From IMG/VR virus record IMGVR_UViG_2939127364_000001: DNA of 64,000 nucleotides; one strand, written 5' to 3'. Origin of the DNA: a virus. Taxonomy: Duplodnaviria; Heunggongvirae; Uroviricota; Caudoviricetes. Below the pieces are notes generated by a model. That model searched no databases. It was not told the DNA's origin and saw nothing but the letters and a program-made list of their open reading frames with translations. This document shows, in pieces, positions 47,991 through 62,375 of the stretch. The position numbers and the translations under genes are program-made. Position 1 is the first letter of the stretch, and each line of letters begins with the position of its first letter.

Positions 47991-48008
47991 CGTAAGTATG
48001 TACTTACA
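47991..48008. promoter_or_regulatory. Motif B near-palindrome
   Basis: cgtaagtatgtacttaca. Confidence 0.35.
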
Positions 48009-48011
48009 ATA

Positions 48012-48040
48012 CAAAAAAGCCCCGTAAGGATGGCGGGGCT
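48012..48040 (-). terminator. Rho-independent terminator (- strand)
   Basis: agccccg-...-cggggct followed by TTTTTT in - sense. Confidence 0.55.
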
Positions 48041-48074
48041 GTCGTACTGTCGACTAATTACCACTTGCACATTA

Positions 48075-48386
48075 TCAGGCTATTGCCATCACTGATGCTC
48101 TCTGAATCTCTTGCTGGGCCACGCGGTTAACTTCCATCAAAGCCAGTTCGAGCTGATGTTCCGGCCACATTCTTTGAAATGCCATCCAGCCTTTTCCACG
48201 CTGGCGACGAACATTCATTACATAACGAGTAAAGGTGTTTTTATCGAAAGACACCGCTGTTTCACGGAACAGACGAATAGAAGTTCCATTGGCAACGATG
48301 TCCAGGAAAGTTAATTGAGCAACCAGTGCAGGCTTCTCTTTTCTCTTCTGGTCTTTGTCCAGACCAAGAACCAATGATTTTTTCAT
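48075..48386 (-). CDS. Hypothetical early protein
   Basis: Track ORF begins with TTG at 48416 inside motif A; the ATG at 48386 is preceded by GGAG and by motif A. Confidence 0.5.
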   Translation of the reverse strand: MKKSLVLGLDKDQKRKEKPALVAQLTFLDIVANGTSIRLFRETAVSFDKNTFTRYVMNVRRQRGKGWMAFQRMWPEHQLELALMEVNRVAQQEIQRASVMAIA

Positions 48387-48396
48387 TACAACTCCG

Positions 48397-48413
48397 TAAA
48401 CGACTTGTTTTCT
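48397..48413. promoter_or_regulatory. Motif A upstream of 48075..48386
   Basis: taaacgacttgttttct. Confidence 0.4.
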
Positions 48414-48499
48414 CAATGGCGTAAATAATACCAGTAAGAAAACGGCTACAAAGCATATTGATCAGGTGCATGAGCGATATGCAGGTTCCTCCCTGCGGC

Positions 48500-48529
48500 T
48501 ATAGAGAAATTAAGCCAGCAATGCTGGCT
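48500..48529 (-). terminator. Terminator after 48540..48869 gene
   Basis: agccagc-aat-gctggct followed by a U-rich stretch in - sense. Confidence 0.45.
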
Positions 48530-48539
48530 TTGGTTAGGT

Positions 48540-48869
48540 TTACTCGAATACTTCAAGAAACTCCTGAACGTCCCAGTGCTGGACGAGGTGAAGATAGACC
48601 TTAGAAATAACGTCATTTTCGCTATCGCATGTGAAGTAGTACTTCTGGCTGCGGTTGTATGTGTCCACACAAAATTCGCTCATATCCATAAAGTCAGCAT
48701 CTTCACCCATGTCGCAAATCATCAAAGCAGGTGCGTCATCACGAGTCATCAGCTCAAGCACCCACCGCGAATTGATCAGAGTGGAAGACCAACCTTCCAG
48801 CTCATAGAACTGGTCAAACTCTTTTTGAGTCAATTTCTTGATTTGGTTGATGTCGATATTTGCAAACAT
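48540..48869 (-). CDS. Hypothetical early protein
   Basis: Track start 48890 overlaps motif A; the internal ATG at 48869 is more plausible. Confidence 0.5.
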   Translation of the reverse strand: MFANIDINQIKKLTQKEFDQFYELEGWSSTLINSRWVLELMTRDDAPALMICDMGEDADFMDMSEFCVDTYNRSQKYYFTCDSENDVISKVYLHLVQHWDVQEFLEVFE

Positions 48870-48880
48870 AAAGCAATCCT

Positions 48881-48897
48881 TAAACAACATGTTTTCT
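48881..48897. promoter_or_regulatory. Motif A upstream of 48540..48869
   Basis: taaacaacatgttttct. Confidence 0.4.
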
Positions 48898-49230
48898 TGA
48901 TGGTGTTATTATCGCAATAACGCACAGGCGAAAAAGGATTTTATTCCGGTGAATGTGGTTTTGGCAGTGAGTTTTCAGGTTCAGTACCGAGTACACTTTT
49001 TACATTATTCTGATTTAGTGGCCGAAGGTGGCTGGTGGGCAGAATAATCCTCTCCCCGAAAACCTACTGAAATCGATTGTGACCCGTTGGCTGTCTGGCA
49101 CAATTACGCTGTAACTGGGCATTCAGAGGGAATCCAGCGGTAAGTAAGTTCGCCTGCACGTGAGCGCCTCTCTTCTTCCCGCACATTACAGGTGGGTAGC
49201 CGCAACTCTCCCTATCGCTATACCGGTACG

Positions 49231-49372
49231 CCGCCGTTCCTGAACCGGCATCGAGCCTTTTCCCGAAATCCACACAGGCAACTCGACCGTTTCCCTGAAA
49301 ATCCCCAGCCGTTCCCCGAAGGCAACCCAGCCGTTTCTGTAGCGGGATGCAGCCTTTTCCCTGTATGGACCG
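49231..49372. repeat. Iteron-like cluster 2: six direct repeats at ~22-bp spacing
   Basis: Units starting near 49233, 49254, 49286, 49308, 49329 and 49351 (gccgttcc, agccttttcc, accgtttcc, agccgttcc, agccgtttc, agccttttcc); intervals 21, 32, 22, 21, 22. Confidence 0.55.
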
Positions 49373-49479
49373 AAGGCTAACCGTAGGGGTGTTACGGGGG
49401 ATAAAATCAGGAGTTGAATAAATACGAAAAAGGAGGCGACACCCCTCCTTCCCTCCCCACTTATACATACCTGTCTTGT

Positions 49480-50330
49480 TCGCTATACATGTTGTGTTTT
49501 CTTCGTGTTTTATCTGTCTCAACCTCTCTATAGGCGTTAATGCTCACTCCTTCCAGAATGTTCTATACGGCGACTATTTCTGTTGGTGAATTGGGTGTGT
49601 CGTTCTCTCTGTCGGTGTAAATGGTTTCGTTCGTTTTGCGGTGGTTCTTCTGTGGGGTGTTCTCGTCGTTTTGGTGATTGTTCTTCTCCGTCTATGGAGT
49701 AATGGCAGGTGGGCGATTCCTTTCGTTATTGTGTTTGAGTTGTTTGTCTGGAGTGTGTGAAAGGCTTTTGTAGTTATTCGTGTATTGGGTAATGGCGTTT
49801 CCCGTGATTGTTATGTTTCGTGTCTTTTGGGATTGAGAGAAACCTTGCGGTTACAGGCTTCGTTGGGGTTTCAGTGATTCTGGTGTTTCTTCGCTGTTTG
49901 GGTAATGGCGTGTCGTGGGTATCGCGCGTATGAATGTTTTCGGATTGCCTGTGAAAGTTAGGTTGGTTGTCCGGTAGCCTGGGAAGAAGAGGTGGGTCTT
50001 TTCGGTAGCCTGCCATAAAGAGGTTGGTTGTTTTGGGGAATGACATGTGTGTTATTTAGTTGTTTTGTTATGCCTGAAAATAAGTTGTTTATATGGTTGT
50101 GTAACGCAACGGGAACGATTTTGAGCGTGTGTTTTTGTTGGTAGTGTGTTGGATCGTCTGTGGTGAAAATTGGACGCTGTGGCGCTGTCTGCTGCGTAGA
50201 ATTACGGGTATAAGCAGTGATGTGTGAAAACGTCAATTTTTTAGACCAAATCGGGTGAAAGCGTTGATGTTTCGTTGATCTGTTATTCAGTTGTTTTCTT
50301 ATTGGTATAAACAACTATAACCTATTGATA
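49480..50330. other. GT-rich strand-asymmetric, apparently non-coding tract (~0.85 kb)
   Basis: + strand G+T about 80% by eye; no credible ORF on either strand; internal direct repeats (cggtagcctg... at 49972 and 50002; gtaatggc three times). Confidence 0.5.
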
Positions 50331-50433
50331 TTTAAGGATGTGATTGCAGGTATAGAATGGGGGTAGTGGCGATCAACGGATTCTTATAGAAAAGAATCAA
50401 ATTGTGACCGCCATTATCAATGAGTTGCAACCG

Positions 50434-51003
50434 TTAGTTGTTCAGATAAACATTTGGAACACGGACGTAGAAGTTCCTGTCGCCGGTAAGTTCCAGAGTA
50501 ATGTTAATGTCATTACCATTGTCTAGTGTAGCCGTTGCTCTATAGAACTTATCCGTCACCTTGTCCTCTATTGTCACCTTCATACATTTTGGTGCAGTCG
50601 AACCGTTATTCTCTTTCAGAATGGTCGTTACGAGAGGACAAGCCGCTTCTTCAAGAGCAACCTCTTTCTGGTGTGGGATACCGATGAAGATGTTACCAGC
50701 AAGCAACGCGACGATTACGATAAAAGGAAGTCGACTGCCTTTTGTAACGGTGGCACGTTTCCAGAGATAGACCGGAAGGAGAAATACTCCCCACAGGATG
50801 GCCGGTGGTTCATACCCTGCATCAGACAATGCCATTCTGTCAGCCACCAGAAAGCCGAGTCCAGCGACTCCACCTATCACTATTGCATAATTCAAATACT
50901 CATCTGGCGGCGCTCCAAAGAAGAGAGGCAGTAAAGCTAGAAGCCACGCATAAGCATTATTCAGAGGTTTTGTTTGTTGGTTCTGGGTTTCCATCACATC
51001 CAT
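50434..51003 (-). CDS. Integral membrane protein (hypothetical)
   Basis: 189 aa; 3-4 hydrophobic segments in the N-terminal half and a soluble C-terminal domain. Confidence 0.5.
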   Translation of the reverse strand: MDVMETQNQQTKPLNNAYAWLLALLPLFFGAPPDEYLNYAIVIGGVAGLGFLVADRMALSDAGYEPPAILWGVFLLPVYLWKRATVTKGSRLPFIVIVALLAGNIFIGIPHQKEVALEEAACPLVTTILKENNGSTAPKCMKVTIEDKVTDKFYRATATLDNGNDINITLELTGDRNFYVRVPNVYLNN

Positions 51004-51838: not shown

Positions 51839-53872
51839 TTACTTAACCTGGTGGCCTGGTTTAGCACCAGCATCCGGGCTTAACAGGAAGATATCTTTCC
51901 CGCCGGGGCCAGCAGCCATCACCATGCCTTCGGAGATACCGAAGCGCATTTTACGCGGAGCCAGGTTAGCCACCATAATGGTGTGACGACCAATCAGTGC
52001 CTGTGGGTCTGGATAAGCAGAACGGATGCCTGAGAAGACATTACGCTTTTCACCACCGAGATCCAGTGTCAGACGCAGCAGTTTGTCAGAACCTTCGACA
52101 AACTCCGCGTTTTCAATCAGCGCCACACGCAGGTCAACTTTGGCGAAGTCGTCAAAGGTGATGGTTTCCTGAATCGGGTCGTCAGCCAGTGGGCCAGTTA
52201 CCGGTGCAGCTGTGGCTTTCACTTCTTCTTTGGATGCTTCCACCAGTGCTTCCACCTGTTTCATATCGATACGGTTATACAATGCCTTGAACGGATTCAC
52301 TTTATGGCCCAGCAGCGGTTGCTGGATACCATCCCAGGTCAGTTCTGTATTCAGGAATGCTTCTGCACGTTCAGTCAGTTTCGGCAGTACCGGTTTCAAG
52401 TACGTCATCAGCACGCGGAACAGGTTAATGCCCATAGAGCAAATCGCCTGCAGATCGGCATCGCGTCCTTCCTGCTTCGCCACCACCCACGGAGCCTGTT
52501 CATCGACATATCGGTTAGCCAGGTCAGCCAATGCCATGATTTCACGGATAGCTTTACCAAATTCGCGGCTTTCCCATGCTTCGCCAATCACTTCAGCGGC
52601 ATCAGTAAAGGTTTTGTACAGTTGCGGGTCAGCCAGTTCGCTTGCCAGCACGCCGTCAAAACGCTTGTTGATAAAGCCTGCATTACGGGAGGCCAGGTTA
52701 ACCACTTTGTTCACGATATCGGCATTCACGCGCTGAACGAAATCCTCCAGGTTGAGATCGATATCATCAATGCGCGAAGAGAGTTTCGCAGTGTAGTAGT
52801 AACGCAGGCTGTCGGCGTCAAAATGATTCAGCCAGGTGCTGGCTTTAATAAAGGTGCCGCGAGACTTGGACATCTTCGCGCCGTTCACCGTCACATAGCC
52901 GTGAACAAACAGGTTGGTCGGCTTGCGGAAGTTGCTGCCTTCCAGCATGGCAGGCCAGAACAGGCTGTGGAAGTAAACAATATCTTTACCGATGAAGTGG
53001 TACAGCTCGGCTGTGGAGTCTTTCTTCCAGTATTCATCGAAGCTGGTGGTATCGCCGCGCTTGTCGCACAGATTCTTGAAGGAACCCATGTAGCCAATCG
53101 GCGCGTCCAGCCAGACGTAGAAATATTTGCCCGGCGCGTTCGGAATTTCAAAACCGAAGTAAGGCGCATCGCGGGAGATATCCCACTGTTGCAGGCCGGA
53201 TTCAAACCACTCCTGCATTTTGTTCGCCACCTGCTCCTGCAACGCACCGCTGCGGGTCCATGCCTGCAACATTTCGCTGAAAGAGGGCAGATCAAAGAAG
53301 AAGTGTTCGGAATCACGCATTACCGGGGTAGCGCCAGAAACCACCGATTTCGGCTCGATCAATTCAGTCGGGCTATATGTTGCGCCGCAGACTTCACAGT
53401 TATCGCCGTATTGATCTGGCGCTTTACATTTCGGGCAGGTGCCTTTCACAAAACGATCCGGCAGGAACATGCCTTTTTCCGGGTCGTACAACTGAGAGAT
53501 AGTGCGGTTTTTAATAAAACCGTTCTCTTTCAGGCGAGTATAGATAAGCTCAGACAGCTGGCGGTTCTCTTCGCTGTGCGTCGAGTGATAGTTGTCATAG
53601 CTGATGTTAAAGCCTGCGAAATCAGTCTGGTGTTCCTGACTCATTTCGCCAATCATCTGCTCCGGTGTGATACCAAGCTGCTGTGCTTTCAGCATGATCG
53701 GCGTACCGTGGGCATCGTCGGCACAGATGAAATTAACCTCGTGGCCGCGCATTCGCTGGTAACGAACCCAGACATCAGCCTGGATGTGCTCCAGCATATG
53801 GCCGAGGTGGATTGAGCCGTTAGCGTACGGCAGCGCGCACGTCACCAGAATTTTCTTCGCGACTTGGGTCAT
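51839..53872 (-). CDS. metG: Methionyl-tRNA synthetase
   Basis: 677 aa from [26 protein letters not shown] (HIGH-type motif), KMSKS present, C-terminal ...KPGHQVK; start set at ATG 53872 rather than the upstream-extended track ORF. Confidence 0.95.
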
Positions 53873-54029: not shown

Positions 54030-55130
54030 ATGAGCGAGTCCAAATCGCCGGATGCCCTGAGAGCAATGGTAGCCGGTACGCTGGCTAATTTTCAGCACCC
54101 AACCCTGAAACACAACCTGACTACGCTTAAAGCGTTACACCATGTTGCGTTGATGGATGACACACTGCATGTCGAACTAATCATGCCTTTCGTGTGGAAT
54201 AAGCCTTTTGAAGACCTGAAAGAGCAATGTAGTGGTGATCTGCTCCGTATCACTGGCGCAAAGGCTATTGACTGGAAGCTGTCGTACAACATTGCCACGC
54301 TTAAGCGCGTCAAAAACCAACCAGGCATTAATGGCGTTAAGAACATTATCGCCGTCAGCTCAGGCAAGGGCGGCGTGGGTAAATCCTCCACGGCGGTAAA
54401 CCTGGCACTGGCGTTGGCTGCTGAAGGTGCGAAAGTTGGTATTTTGGATGCCGATATCTATGGTCCATCAATTCCAACCATGCTGGGCGCGGAAAACCAA
54501 CGTCCAACCTCACCTGACGGTACTCACATGGCACCTATCATGTCTCATGGCCTGGCAACCAACTCTATTGGTTATCTGGTCACCGACGACAATGCAATGG
54601 TGTGGCGTGGACCGATGGCCAGCAAGGCGCTGATGCAGATGTTGCAGGAAACTCTATGGCCTGATCTGGACTATCTCGTTCTCGATATGCCGCCGGGCAC
54701 TGGTGATATTCAGTTGACGCTGGCGCAGAACATTCCTGTAACTGGTGCGGTTGTGGTAACTACGCCGCAAGACATCGCGCTGATCGATGCGAAGAAAGGC
54801 ATTGTGATGTTCGAAAAAGTCGAAGTGCCGGTACTGGGTATCGTCGAAAACATGAGTGTGCATATTTGCAGTAACTGCGGTCATCACGAGCCAATTTTTG
54901 GCACCGGTGGCGCACAGAAACTGGCCGAGAAATACAACACGCAGTTGTTAGGCCAAATGCCACTTCATATCTCTCTTCGTGAAGATCTGGATAACGGAAC
55001 ACCAACCGTTATTAGTCGTCCAGATAGCGAATTTACGGCTATTTATCGTGACCTCGCAGATCGCGTTGCCGCCCAAATGTATTGGCAAGGTGAAGTAATA
55101 CCTGGCGAAATCGCATTCCGCGCAGTGTGA
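54030..55130 (+). CDS. apbC: Fe-S cluster carrier ATPase ApbC/Mrp
   Basis: 366 aa; P-loop SGKGGVGKSS; CxxC motif ICSNCGHH; divergent from metG as in E. coli. Confidence 0.9.
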   Translation: MSESKSPDALRAMVAGTLANFQHPTLKHNLTTLKALHHVALMDDTLHVELIMPFVWNKPFEDLKEQCSGDLLRITGAKAIDWKLSYNIATLKRVKNQPGINGVKNIIAVSSGKGGVGKSSTAVNLALALAAEGAKVGILDADIYGPSIPTMLGAENQRPTSPDGTHMAPIMSHGLATNSIGYLVTDDNAMVWRGPMASKALMQMLQETLWPDLDYLVLDMPPGTGDIQLTLAQNIPVTGAVVVTTPQDIALIDAKKGIVMFEKVEVPVLGIVENMSVHICSNCGHHEPIFGTGGAQKLAEKYNTQLLGQMPLHISLREDLDNGTPTVISRPDSEFTAIYRDLADRVAAQMYWQGEVIPGEIAFRAV

Positions 55131-55166
55131 TAAAAGGCGGTGCATTGCACCGCCTAATCAGTTCTC

Positions 55167-55556
55167 CTACATCACGGGACAATCATCAAACTCGCCACTT
55201 CTTGCGTCGTTGATAATGTGAGTGATCACACCAAACACGGCATTGCTGCCCGTGCATCCATCGTCATCCTTTGGCAATGCTTCCTTCTTACCGGTTCTTA
55301 AATCCTCCAGATGCTGACGTGGGTACTTCCGGTATCTTTTTACGCGATATTCCCCATCCAGAGCGCATACAAGCAGAGAACCATCAACCGGGGTAAGTGA
55401 GGAATCGACCACCAGCAATGCACCCTGTAATATTCCCTCACGATGATGACTATCAGCTGCCCTCATGAAGTAGGTCGCTGAAGGATGTCTAATTATCTGC
55501 TGATCAAGAGAAATACGGCTCTCAGCATAATCCGCCGCAGGAGAAGGGAAGCCCAT
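55167..55556 (-). CDS. UmuD'-like S24 peptidase domain protein (lacks the N-terminal arm and cleavage site)
   Basis: 129 aa beginning MGFPSPAADY...HPSATYF...LLVVDS...DGEYRVKRY, aligning with UmuD from its Gly25 onward; convergent with apbC. Confidence 0.7.
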   Translation of the reverse strand: MGFPSPAADYAESRISLDQQIIRHPSATYFMRAADSHHREGILQGALLVVDSSLTPVDGSLLVCALDGEYRVKRYRKYPRQHLEDLRTGKKEALPKDDDGCTGSNAVFGVITHIINDARSGEFDDCPVM

Positions 55557-55574
55557 AGCGTTTTCACCTCAGAG

Positions 55575-55594
55575 TACTGTTTATCCATACAGTA
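55575..55594. promoter_or_regulatory. LexA (SOS) box
   Basis: tactgtttatccatacagta = CTGT-N8-ACAG, 20 nt upstream of the UmuD'-like start. Confidence 0.65.
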
Positions 55595-55654
55595 TACATT
55601 AAAGATGCTTGAAGTGTGCAATAGCGCGATGCTTTGCGCTCGTCTGGTGGCGCG

Positions 55655-55906
55655 TTATTTTTTGGCTATATCTTCTTTCTGATATACCGGATCGTTTCCT
55701 TTTGGCAGCAGGAGGCTTAACTGCCGGTAGTGCCGTAGCCGTTCCATGAAATAGGTGCGCAGGTTCTCAGGTTGCTCACGGGCTACCTGTTCCGCTATGA
55801 CGGGTATGTTCAATCGCTCTTTGTAGGCAACCCCCCTGGCAGCCAGGTCAACGTTAACTTTATTCCTTTCTTCCTGGCTTTTGGCTGCTATGTTCCAGTT
55901 GCTCAT
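55655..55906 (-). CDS. Small hypothetical protein
   Basis: 83-aa ORF upstream of the UmuD'-like gene, separated from it by ~100 bp containing the LexA box. Confidence 0.4.
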
Positions 55907-56258: not shown

Positions 56259-57821
56259 ATGAAAATGACAAGTATTCAACAACGTGCAGAGCTTCATCGC
56301 CAGATCTGGCAAATTGCTAACGATGTCAGGGGTTCAGTCGATGGATGGGATTTTAAGCAGTACGTTTTGGGCGCGCTTTTTTACCGTTTTATCAGCGAAA
56401 ATTTTTCCAGTTATATTGAAGCCGGTGATGACAGTATCTGTTATGCGAAACTGGATGACAGCGTAATTACTGATGACATTAAAGACGATGCCATCAAAAC
56501 TAAAGGCTACTTCATCTACCCCAGTCAGCTTTTCTGCAACGTAGCTGCGAAAGCAAATACTAATGACAGACTGAATGCAGATTTAAACAGCATCTTCGTT
56601 GCTATCGAAAGTTCTGCTTACGGTTATCCTTCAGAAGCTGACATCAAAGGTTTGTTTGCTGATTTCGATACCACCAGTAACCGCCTGGGTAACACCGTTA
56701 AAGATAAAAATGCCCGCTTGGCTGCGGTTCTGAAAGGGGTTGAAGGGCTAAAACTTGGTGACTTCCATGAACATCAGATTGACCTGTTCGGTGACGCCTA
56801 TGAGTTCCTGATTTCTAACTATGCGGCGAATGCCGGTAAGTCCGGCGGCGAGTTCTTTACACCGCAGCACGTCTCTAAGCTGATTGCACAACTGGCTATG
56901 CACGGGCAGACCCACGTTAACAAAATCTACGACCCGGCAGCAGGCTCCGGTTCGCTGTTGTTGCAGGCGAAAAAACAGTTTGATGACCATATCATCGAAG
57001 AAGGTTTTTTTGGTCAGGAAATCAACCATACGACCTATAACCTGGCGCGTATGAACATGTTTTTGCACAACATCAACTACGACAAGTTTGATATCAAGCT
57101 GGGTAATACACTGACTGAGCCGCACTTCAGAGATGAAAAACCGTTTGATGCCATCGTTTCTAACCCGCCGTATTCGGTGAAATGGATTGGCAGCGATGAC
57201 CCGACGCTGATTAACGATGAACGTTTTGCCCCGGCTGGCGTTCTGGCCCCCAAATCCAAAGCTGACTTTGCGTTTGTATTACATGCGCTGAACTATCTTT
57301 CGGCCAAAGGTCGCGCTGCGATTGTCTGCTTCCCAGGCATTTTTTACCGTGGCGGCGCGGAGCAGAAAATCCGTCAGTATCTGGTCGACAATAACTATGT
57401 CGAAACCGTGATTTCACTGGCACCGAATCTGTTCTTTGGCACCACTATTGCCGTCAATATTCTGGTGCTGTCTAAACATAAAACGGATACCAAAGTTCAG
57501 TTTATTGATGCCAGCGAACTGTTCAAAAAAGAGACTAACAACAACATTCTGACCGATGCTCATATCGAACAGATTATGCAGGTATTTGCCAGCAAGAAAG
57601 ATGTTGCTCATCTGGCGAAATCTGTTGCGTTTGAGACTGTTGTCGCGAATGACTATAACCTGTCGGTGAGCAGCTATGTGGAAGCGAAAGATACTCGCGA
57701 AATTATCGATATCGCTGAGCTGAATGCTGAGCTGAAAACCACGGTCAGCAAAATCGACCAGTTGCGTAAAGATATTGATGCGATTGTTGCTGAGATTGAA
57801 GGTAGCGAGGTACAGGCATGA
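56259..57821 (+). CDS. hsdM: Type I restriction-modification system methyltransferase subunit
   Basis: 520 aa; N6-adenine MTase motif [12 protein letters not shown]; SAM-binding region; N-terminus [17 protein letters not shown]. Confidence 0.9.
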
Positions 57822-59137
57822 GCGAGCTGAGTTATCTGGAAAAACTGCTGGATGGGGCTGAGGTTGAGTGGGTAGCATTAAATAAATTAGCAACTTTTTT
57901 AAAAGGGAAGTCTTTACCTAAAGAAAAAATAACTCCAGATGGCAATAGATATTGTATTCATTACGGTGAGCTTTTCACTCATTATGGTCCCATAATTGAC
58001 AAAGTATGCTCAAAAACAAACCAAGCAATCAATGAGTCAATTCTATCTGAAAAAAATGATGTTCTAATGCCAACGTCAGACGTTACACCAAGAGGTTTGG
58101 CTACAGCTAGTTGCATTCAAGAAAGTGGCGTTATTTTAGGCGGCGATATTTTGATTATTAGATGCTCTGGTGTTGATGGTAGATATCTAAGTAATTTCAT
58201 AATAAATAACAAAAAAAAGATATTGCAAATGGTTAAAGGTTCTACTGTTTATCATTTGTATGCTAAAGATATAGGTAAATTACTTATCCCCATCCCTTGC
58301 CCCAACAACCCGGAAAAGTCGCTGGCTATCCAGTCTGAAATCGTCAGGATTCTGGATAAATTTACTGCACTTACCGCTGAGCTTACCGCTGAGCTTAGCA
58401 TGCGTAAAAAACAATACAACTACTATCGCGACCAGTTGTTGAGTTTTGATGATGAGCAGGAAAAACCTATTTATCTGGAAAAATTGCTGGATGGGGTTGA
58501 GGTTGAGTGGTTGCCATTGGGGAAACTAGGTGAATTAGTTCGTGGAAATGGATTGCCTAAGTCTGATTTTACCGAATCTGGGGTTCCTGCCATACACTAT
58601 GGTCAGATATATACTTTTTACGGATTATCTACTGAAACAACAAAGTCATTTGTTTCCCATGAAACGGCGAAGAAGCTTAAAAAGGTTAACTCTGGTGATG
58701 TTGTTATTACTAACACAAGCGAAAATTTTACTGATGTTGGTAAGGCGCTTGTTTATCTAGGTAAAGAGCAAGCTGTTACTGGTGGCCATGCAACTATTTT
58801 TAAGCCAAATAGCACTATTATTGGGAAATACTTTGCCTATTTCACGCAAACGGATTCTTTTGCAAATGGGAAAAGGAAATACTCCAAGGGAACTAAAGTA
58901 ATTGATGTGTCTGCATCGGATATGGCGAAAATTATTATCCCTATCCCCTGTCCGGAAAATCCGGAAAAATCCCTTGCCATTCAGTCTGAAATCGTTCGGA
59001 TTCTGGATAAATTCGACACCCTGACTAACTCCATCACCGAAGGTCTCCCGCGTGAAATCGAGTTGCGCCAGAAACAATACGAATACTACCGTGATTTACT
59101 GTTCAGTTTCCCAAAACCTGAAACTGTCAGTAATTAA
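57818..59137 (+). CDS. hsdS: Type I restriction-modification specificity subunit (type IC-like architecture)
   Basis: 439 aa; two AT-rich target-recognition regions separated by GC-richer conserved repeats ([23 protein letters not shown]... and [23 protein letters not shown]...); central TAELTAEL. Confidence 0.9.
58370..58396 (+). repeat. Tandem 12-bp repeat (cttaccgctgag x2) in hsdS central conserved region
   Basis: Encodes TAEL-TAEL; copy number of this repeat distinguishes EcoR124I from EcoR124II specificity. Confidence 0.7.
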
Positions 59138-59258
59138 TTGACCATTGCTACCGACCGGGCCACCTTAACACCCGGTCAGTATATAGACTATTTTTTTACG
59201 CGCCGGAAGCCCCCTTAACTCCCTTCCGGCCCTTGCCAGACGGCACAAAGGATGCGCT

Positions 59259-62200
59259 ATGACTCATCAAACACATACCATTGCTGAATCCAATAACTTT
59301 ATCGTTCTTGATAAGTACATCAAAGCTGAGCCAACAGGCGACAGCTACCAGAGCGAATCGGACCTGGAACGTGAACTGATTCAAGACCTGCGGAATCAGG
59401 GCTATGAATTTATTTCGGTAAAATCACAGTCAGCGATGCTGACCAACGTTCGGGAACAGCTTCAGAGCCTCAATGGTGTGGTGTTTAATGACAGCGAGTG
59501 GCGGCGTTTCACGGAGCAGTATCTGGACAACCCGAGCGATGGCATTCTGGATAAGACCCGTAAAATCCATATCGACTATATTTGCGACTTTATTTTTGAT
59601 GACGAGCGACTTGAGAACATCTATTTGATAGATAAAAAGAATCTCATGCGCAATAAGGTGCAGATTATCCAGCAGTTTGAACAGACGGGTTCTCATGCTA
59701 ACCGTTATGACGTCACGATCCTGGTTAATGGCTTACCACTGGTACAAATCGAACTGAAAAAGCGCGGCGTGGCGATTCGTGAGGCTTTCAACCAGATACA
59801 TCGTTACAGTAAAGAGAGTTTTAACAGCGAAAACTCCCTGTTTAAGTATCTGCAACTGTTTGTCATTTCTAACGGCACCGATACCCGTTATTTTGCCAAC
59901 ACAACAAAGCGCGATAAAAACAGTTTTGACTTCACCATGAACTGGGCGAAATCAGACAACACGCTGATTAAAGACCTCAAAGATTTTACCGCTACCTTTT
60001 TCCAGAAACATACTCTGCTTAATGTTCTGGTGAACTACAGCGTTTTTGACAGCAGTCAGACGCTACTGGTGATGCGACCGTACCAGATTGCTGCCACCGA
60101 GCGCATTCTGTGGAAAATTAAGAGCTCCTTTACAGCGAAGAACTGGTCAAAACCGGAAAGCGGAGGGTATATCTGGCACACTACCGGTTCTGGTAAAACC
60201 CTCACCAGCTTTAAAGCCGCGCGTCTGGCAACAGAGCTGGACTTTATTGATAAAGTCTTCTTCGTGGTCGACAGGAAAGACCTCGATTACCAGACCATGA
60301 AGGAATATCAGCGTTTTTCGCCAGACAGCGTCAACGGCTCGGAAAATACCGCAGGCCTTAAACGAAATCTGGATAAGGACGATAACAAAATTATCGTCAC
60401 CACTATTCAGAAACTTAATAACCTGATGAAAGCAGAAAGCGACCTGCCTGTATACAATCAGCAAGTGGTGTTTATATTTGATGAATGTCACCGCAGCCAG
60501 TTTGGAGAAGCGCAGAAAAACCTGAAGAAGAAATTCAAACGCTATTATCAGTTTGGTTTTACCGGCACACCTATTTTCCCGGAAAACGCCTTAGGCTCAG
60601 AAACGACCGCCAGCGTATTTGGTCGTGAATTGCATTCGTATGTAATTACCGATGCGATTCGTGATGAAAAAGTGCTCAAATTCAAGGTGGACTACAACGA
60701 TGTGCGGCCACAGTTTAAATCTTTAGAGACAGAAACCGACGAGAAAAAACTGAGTGCGGCTGAAAATCAGCAGGCATTTCTTCATCCCATGCGTATACAG
60801 GAAATTACGCAATATATTCTGAATAACTTCCGCCAGAAGACCCACCGTACTTTCCCAGGTTCCAAAGGCTTTAATGCCATGCTGGCAGTGAGTAGCGTGG
60901 ATGCCGCGAAAGCCTATTACGCGACGTTTAAACGGTTACAAGAGGAAGCAGCTAATAAATCGGCTACCTATAAACCGCTGCGTGTTGCAACAATCTTCTC
61001 CTTTGCCGCCAATGAAGAACAAAATGCCATTGGTGAAATTTCCGATGAAACTTTTGATACCAGCGCAATGGACAGCAGTGCTAAAGAGTTTCTTGACGCT
61101 GCAATTCGTGAGTATAACAGCTATTTTAAAACTAACTTCAGCACCGACAGTAACGGTTTTCAGAACTACTATCGTGATTTAGCCCAACGGGTTAAAAATC
61201 AGGATATCGATCTGTTAATTGTCGTTGGGATGTTTTTAACCGGCTTCGACGCTCCAACATTGAACACGCTATTCGTCGATAAAAACTTGCGTTTTCACGG
61301 CCTGATGCAGGCATTCTCCCGTACCAACCGCATTTATGACGCTACTAAAACCTTCGGTAACATCGTCACTTTTCGGGATCTGGAACGCTCAACCATTGAT
61401 GCCATAACGCTGTTTGGTGATAAAAATACTAAAAATGTGGTGTTAGAAAAGAGTTATGCTGAGTATATGGAAGGCTTTACAGATGCTGCCACTGGTGAAG
61501 CTAAACGCGGCTTTATGGCAGTAGTTTCAGAACTGGAACAACGGTTCCCTGACCCTGCCAGTATTGAAAGTGAAAAAGAGAAGAAAGACTTCGTAAAACT
61601 GTTTGGTGAATACCTGCGTGCCGAGAACATCCTGCAAAACTATGATGAATTTGCCACGCTGAAAGCCCTGCAACAAATCGATCTTAGCGATCCTGTTGCG
61701 GTAGAAAAATTCAAAGCAGAACATTATGTGGATGATGAAAAGTTCGCTGAATTGCAAACAATTCGTCTCCCTGCTGAACGCAAGATTCAGGATTATCGTT
61801 CTGCCTATAACGATATTCGCGACTGGCAGCGCCGTGAGAAAGAAGCTGAGAAAAAAGAGAAATCAACCACTGACTGGGATGACGTAGTTTTTGAGGTCGA
61901 TTTGCTGAAGTCTCAGGAAATAAACCTGGATTATATCCTTGGACTGATTTTCGAACACAACAGACAAAATAAAGGCAAGGGCGAAATGATCGAAGAGGTC
62001 AAACGCTTAATTCGTTCAAGCCTGGGGAACCGGGCGAAAGAGGGCCTGGTGGTCGATTTTATTCAGCAAACGAACCTGGATGATTTACCAGACAAAGCCA
62101 GTATCATTGAGGCATTCTTTACGTTTGCTCAACGCGAACAGCAACGTGAAGCAGAAGCATTGATAAAAGAAGAAAATCTCAATGAAGAGGCGGCGAAACG

Positions 62201-62375
62201 CTATATTCGCACGTCTTTAAAACGCGAATACGCCACCGAAAATGGCACAGAATTAAACGAGACATTACCAAAACTTAGTCCGTTAAACCCGCAATATAAA
62301 ACGAAAAAACAGACCGTTTTCCAGAAAATCGTCACGTTTATTGAAAAGTTCAAAGGAGTAGGTGGGCAGATATAG
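59259..62375 (+). CDS. hsdR: Type I restriction enzyme endonuclease/translocase subunit
   Basis: 1038 aa; helicase motifs TGSGKT and DECHRSQ; own transcription unit 120 bp after hsdS; M-S-R gene order as in type IC systems. Confidence 0.9.

Follow-up and report, generated by a model that had tools for sequence, protein, structure and literature searches.

We analyzed a 64,000-nt stretch of DNA, referred to here as the window, and focused on the segment between positions 55167 and 55906. A sequence-only reading had treated this segment as a single orphan UmuD'-like gene. The segment spans two genes, humD and hot, the latter lying directly upstream of the former on the same strand (Table 1). 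The earlier description of the humD product was accurate, but it missed that the gene had already been named HumD, that the replicon is a phage-plasmid, and that the 83-aa open reading frame next to humD is hot. On one side the locus is flanked by apbC and metG, and on the other side, beyond hot, by the type I restriction-modification genes hsdM, hsdS, and hsdR.

Table 1. Features of the humD locus, with coordinates given as positions in the window
Feature	Position	Strand	Description
metG	51839-53872	minus	methionyl-tRNA synthetase
apbC	54030-55130	plus	Fe-S cluster carrier
Intrinsic-terminator-like hairpin	55130-55154	minus	GGCGGUGCAAUGCACCGCC then UUUUAU; just past the humD stop, convergent with apbC
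humD	55167-55556	minus	129 aa, ATG start; pre-truncated UmuD'-type protein with S24 fold
humD C-terminal tail	55167-55199	minus	RSGEFDDCPVM, last 11 codons of humD
Shine-Dalgarno-like site	55565-55570	minus	GAGGTG, 8 nt before the humD ATG; kept in P1
LexA (SOS) box	55575-55594		TACTGTATGGATAAACAGTA on the strand of the gene, also given as TACTGTTTATCCATACAGTA; 18 nt to the humD ATG
Sigma-70-like promoter, predicted	55591-55620	minus	TGCACA-18-TATACT; consensus scan
hot	55655-55906	minus	83 aa; Pol III theta-subunit homologue (PF06440, 2.1e-31)
hsdM/hsdS/hsdR	56259-62375	plus	complete type I restriction-modification system, divergent from hot

The E. coli plasmid pMB5646_2, of 109,579 bp, is collinear with the window over plasmid positions 27864-89844, at ~97% identity. 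This plasmid encodes RepB and ParB-type partition proteins together with terminase, portal, capsid, and tail genes, as well as dnaE, primase, helicase, ligase, and nrdAB. Part of the window also matches Salmonella phage SSU5 and its Klebsiella relatives. Because phage and plasmid genes occur together on the collinear plasmid, and because of the SSU5 and Klebsiella matches, we assign the window to an SSU5-like phage-plasmid. The carrier of humD is an intact SSU5-like phage-plasmid of E. coli.

Hot matches the P1 Hot structures 1se7 and 2ido (E = 9e-45, ~88% identical), and the dN/dS of hot against its P1 counterpart is 0.12. Outside the window, pMB5646_2 carries dnaE, encoding Pol III alpha (L004 11555-15073), and a gene for an RNase_T/DnaQ-type 3'-5' exonuclease (L001 34361-34918; PF00929, 6e-22). 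Taken together with Hot, these genes suggest that the element may hold a complete alpha-epsilon-theta-like polymerase core.

Several other features of the neighborhood deserve mention. Both metG, near humD, and apbC, which adjoins it, are full-length, host-like housekeeping genes carried on a phage-plasmid. The hsdS region (~58447-59000) is unlike that of the reference plasmid, and phage Cyrano has Ea22-like genes at the position of the restriction-modification system; this site seems to be a variable hotspot for accessory or defence genes. Farther away, ~850 nt at ~49460-50300 show an extreme strand asymmetry, with a GC skew of +0.33 to +0.36, an AT skew down to -0.50, and an A/C-rich minus strand. 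The corresponding region of the RefSeq plasmid has no annotated CDS, and SSU5 and Klebsiella relatives conserve the stretch at 66-73% identity. Scanning the entire window against Rfam returned no match, and no tandem repeats were found in 48000-51000. Read along the minus strand, the stretch closes with a hairpin and then a T-run. It may represent a replication element or a long noncoding RNA.

Identity and start of HumD

The humD reading frame translates to MGFPSPAADYAESRISLDQQ, opening with MGFPSPAADY. It scored 219.8 bits against the HumD equivalog model NCBIfam NF051876 (cutoff 120; the model is named 'HumD family translesion DNA polymerase'), with residues 1-129 aligned to profile positions 1-129, and it matched PF00717 (Peptidase_S24) at 1.6e-9. 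In tblastn comparisons with phage genomes, identity was 100% to Cyrano CYRAN_98, 91.5% to P1 humD, 90.7% to D6, and 71% to phiKO2 gp23. Other assignments were considered and rejected. Against the UmuD model NF007621 the protein scored 87 bits, below the cutoff of 110. An autoproteolytic UmuD subunit of Pol V does not describe it either: it has no N-terminal arm and no self-cleavage site, and it begins at the post-cleavage residue. As a LexA-type repressor (TIGR00498) it reached 27.2 bits against a cutoff of 110.95, with a match to the C-terminal-domain region alone and no winged-helix DNA-binding domain.

The best match among solved structures was UmuD' (1umu, E = 6.7e-23). When aligned to full-length UmuD (8gmt_B), residues 2-116 of the query pair with residues 25-136 of the chain, which places residue 2 (Gly) at UmuD Gly25, and a tblastn search with K-12 UmuD covered UmuD residues 25-139 only, at 42% identity. 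These two alignments confirm what the sequence-only reading had proposed, namely that the start MGFPSPAADY corresponds to UmuD Gly25 and that the arm and the Cys-Gly cleavage site are missing. An AlphaFold (AF2) model built from a diverse alignment (pLDDT 74.7) also had UmuD' 1umu as its nearest structure, with a TM score of 0.77 normalised to the target; a model built from 36 close homologues reached a pLDDT of 51 and was not used. In common with E. coli UmuD and UmuD' (1umu, 1ay9, 1i4v, 8gmt), window HumD has the S24 fold, the conserved GFPSPAADY arm, and predicted LexA-box control. It differs in lacking residues 1-24, the Cys24-Gly25 site, and a umuC operon, and in having a degenerate GDSM motif and an extra 11-residue acidic/hydrophobic tail.

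An in-frame extension upstream had been named beforehand as a finding that would overturn this reading. We looked for one and found no longer in-frame form: three in-frame stops lie within 60 nt upstream, and the closest of them, a TGA, precedes the ATG by five codons. At least 15 independently sequenced plasmids share the 1.2-kb stretch containing humD at 100% identity, and a longer form hidden by a sequencing error is therefore excluded.

The window gene is HumD, already known from its characterization in phage P1 (McLenigan et al. 1999, J Bacteriol 181:7005). According to the account of that work in PMC7092418, P1 HumD is an 'already activated, shorter UmuD' and facilitates SOS mutagenesis in this activated short form; the P1 record AF234173 annotates humD as 'DNA repair; functionally complements E. 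coli UmuD''. The suggestion that the window protein would act as a constitutively 'processed' UmuD' analogue fits this account, given the 91.5% identity between the two proteins. They are alike in length (129 aa), in the MGFPSPAADY start, and in the C-terminal tail. Their settings are alike as well: in both, the LexA box lies at the same distance from the start, umuC is missing, hot is nearby, and the carrier is a temperate phage living as a plasmid. The two settings differ in that the window element is SSU5-like and not P1-like, and in that phd-doc flanks the locus in P1, whereas apbC-metG and the type I restriction-modification genes do so in the window. P1 HumD reportedly shows poor expression, and good complementation only when carried on a high-copy vector, and what it does for the phage was left open.

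Regulatory sites and distribution of humD

The full 20-mer of the LexA box is the sole site in the 64-kb window with three or fewer mismatches to the LexA consensus TACTGTATATATATACAGTA, and no such site occurred in 100 shuffles. It takes the position of the GenBank-annotated LexA site of P1 humD, 20-39 nt upstream of that gene. Hence, the earlier claim of an SOS box upstream of the gene stands for the full 20-mer, but the minimal pattern CTGT-N8-ACAG is no rarer than chance and is not significant alone (two in the window versus 0.93 expected). The second occurrence of this pattern, at 48257-48272 (CTGTTTCACGGAACAG), has neither the flanking TA...TA nor the AT-rich core, and was set aside as being at chance level. 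LexA-like boxes also precede humD in Cyrano, phiKO2, BTP1, and Pocitis76. The humD promoter carries a predicted LexA operator, as judged from this box. The -10 hexamer of the predicted promoter (55596-55591) overlaps the left arm of the LexA box; the promoter is a weak consensus match identified by pattern only, with one site found versus 1.8 expected in shuffles.

The hairpin that follows humD was detected by RNA folding, having been missed by a consensus terminator scan. It has a GC-rich stem of 9 bp and a folding energy of -21.6 kcal/mol (z = -4.3), and none of 200 shuffles was as stable. No stable hairpin was found between hot and humD on their strand. Because no terminator separates the two genes, some LexA-independent read-through from hot into humD is possible.

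Window humD and P1 humD are 85% identical in nucleotides and 91.5% identical in amino acids, with a dN/dS of 0.05, and humD is under purifying selection. Homology between the window and P1 starts ~40 nt upstream of the humD ATG and includes the LexA box. The P1 order is hot, the divergent gene lxr, the box, and humD, so that lxr separates hot from humD there; the window has no lxr, and hot and humD are therefore only 98 nt apart. This layout without lxr is also found on many 90-99-kb, P1-sized plasmids, and Cyrano has no hot upstream of humD. The shared hot-humD block is of value for annotation, as it is common to an SSU5-like phage-plasmid and P1-like elements, and it illustrates how unrelated phage-plasmid families exchange accessory genes that are SOS-regulated.

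More broadly, clustering at 90% identity divides the HumD family into 561 clusters, most of them of 126-130 aa with an MGFPSP start. Of 5426 complete E. coli genomes, 772 (~14%) contain humD-like DNA, which is mostly plasmid-borne. An orphan humD with a LexA box occurs in P1, D6, SJ46, phiKO2, HK140, BTP1, and Hafnia phage Pocitis76. By contrast, Cronobacter phage ENT39118 has full-length umuD with umuC. The homologues phiKO2 gp23 (from N15/phiKO2-type linear phage-plasmids), HK140 gp28, and that of BTP1 (both from lambdoid/P22-like prophages) resemble window HumD in being orphan and pre-truncated, with a LexA box and the same tail, at 63-71% identity; they differ in having dinI in place of hot as a partner and Thr in place of Ser at the nucleophile position. 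In phiKO2 a divergent dinI shares one LexA box with humD, and in HK140 humD adjoins dinI. Stx2-converting and other lambdoid phages carry unannotated humD fragments (residues ~45-128) near a genome end, and these are real remnants. HumD has been known since 1999 and is covered by a dedicated NCBI family model, and humD-like DNA occurs in ~14% of complete E. coli genomes; its presence here is therefore an ordinary finding that carries little weight as a discovery.

Partner polymerase and proposed mechanism of HumD

The sequence-only reading had stated that no umuC is adjacent to the gene, and had named a umuC just outside the analyzed region as a finding that would count against it. With K-12 UmuC as the query, tblastn identified no umuC either in the window or across all 109,579 bp of pMB5646_2 (best E = 0.27), and the annotation of pMB5646_2 lists no Y-family polymerase. 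Of 5426 complete E. coli genomes, 5422 carry umuC, which is almost always chromosomal. Because the element has no umuC and nearly every E. coli genome does, we conclude that the host supplies the partner polymerase, as described for P1 HumD; the proposal that the gene would serve a polymerase encoded elsewhere is borne out in this respect and fits the published account of P1 HumD.

We consider it very probable that humD encodes a phage UmuD' translated directly in the 'already cleaved' form, an accessory gene of an SSU5-like phage-plasmid whose product partners in a Pol V-like polymerase. In the plasmid-prophage state, host LexA would sit on the box overlapping the humD -10 hexamer and keep the gene off. 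Upon DNA damage, RecA would become active and LexA would be cleaved. HumD would then be produced, with no need for RecA-mediated self-cleavage, and a HumD dimer together with host chromosomal UmuC and RecA filaments would form a Pol V-like translesion polymerase, skipping the slow UmuD-to-UmuD' step. The identity and anatomy of the gene, the conservation of the box, the absence and presence of umuC, and the evidence for selection come from our analysis, while the biochemical activity is that of P1 HumD. From the 91.5% identity to that protein, we infer that window HumD can replace UmuD' and bind UmuC and RecA filaments. Four points sit less easily with this mechanism: the reportedly poor expression of P1 HumD, the near-invariant tail that UmuD' lacks, the weak promoter match, and the possible read-through from hot.

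We weighed three rivals to this mechanism, all of which are less likely than HumD acting with UmuC. One is that HumD is an active S24 peptidase that cuts host UmuD, LexA, or another repressor in trans, and thereby speeds SOS mutagenesis enzymatically. UmuD cleavage can be intermolecular, and window HumD has Ser36 and Lys73 at the positions of UmuD Ser60 and Lys97, the Lys97 equivalent being kept in 98 of 99 close relatives. However, the motif is A-D-S-H where S24 peptidases have G-D-S-M, the residue at the nucleophile position varies among the same 99 relatives (Ser in 55, Thr in 42, Ala in 2), and the Asp in front of it varies freely. The homologue of Hafnia phage Pocitis76 goes further, with Tyr at the Ser position and Arg at the Lys position, yet the tail is still present. 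Such variation fits relaxed selection on self-cleavage chemistry, which is expected of a protein that has nothing to cleave; we regard a catalytic role in trans as very unlikely. Still less credible is the view that humD has no function and is decaying, as what is left of a umuDC operon or an integrative element, the latter having been among the earlier suggestions. The absence of umuC and the truncated humD fragments at the ends of Stx2 prophages are what one could cite for it. The dN/dS of 0.05 shows that humD is not a remnant or pseudogene and has already refuted this reading, and the gene sits on an intact phage-plasmid, remains an intact open reading frame of unchanged length across hundreds of clusters, and has a conserved LexA box, Shine-Dalgarno site, and terminator. 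Decay thus has next to no probability.

The remaining rival is that HumD acts mainly without UmuC, by modulating the host replisome or RecA filaments during SOS. It could, for example, bind Pol III alpha, epsilon, or beta, activated RecA (RecA*), or, through its tail, partner proteins of SSB, and would then be one of the small host-mimic proteins, such as Hot and DinI, that temperate phages make after DNA damage. The company that humD keeps speaks for this idea: it adjoins hot, whose product is a homologue of theta and binds epsilon, and it is paired with dinI in phiKO2 and HK140, under one shared LexA box in the former. A conserved EFDDCPVM tail, predicted to be disordered, that distinguishes pre-cut orphan proteins (9 of 22) from full-length UmuD-type proteins (0 of 50) points the same way, as do reports, going by titles cited in PMC4713147, that UmuD and UmuD' bind Pol III subunits. 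On the other hand, the published P1 HumD data concern UmuD'-like function, and hot is not a constant neighbor, being absent upstream of humD in Cyrano and separated from it by lxr in P1. We therefore hold a mainly UmuC-independent role to be improbable, and favor HumD working with host UmuC.

The conserved C-terminal tail

The last eight residues of HumD, EFDDCPVM, are almost invariant in the family, and both Cys64 and Cys126 are conserved. Within the HumD subfamily the tail follows the pattern [DE]-F-D-D-x-P-x-[MILF]-COOH, and variants are found down to ~40% identity (EFDDTPF, EWDDLPVI, EFDEIPCI, and EFHDNLPF). Among 22 complete pre-truncated representatives, 9 carry the tail (11 if read more loosely), compared with none of 50 full-length UmuD-type proteins. 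It is predicted to be disordered, with an AlphaFold pLDDT below 50 for residues 124-129.

This tail is not found in UmuD', and it is the sole feature of the protein that a simple 'UmuD' copy' model leaves unexplained. The C-terminal tip of SSB is DFDDDIPF. Based on the resemblance between the two motifs, the confinement of the tail to orphan proteins of the pre-cut form, and its predicted disorder, we raise the idea, itself unlikely, that the HumD tail may mimic the SSB tip, and would either tether HumD-UmuC to SSB partners (e.g., the clamp-loader subunit chi) or compete with SSB. If such mimicry were true, HumD would be more than a pre-cut UmuD'. As a conserved element specific to pre-cut orphan proteins of the HumD kind, the tail is the one feature of this locus that is worth an experiment.
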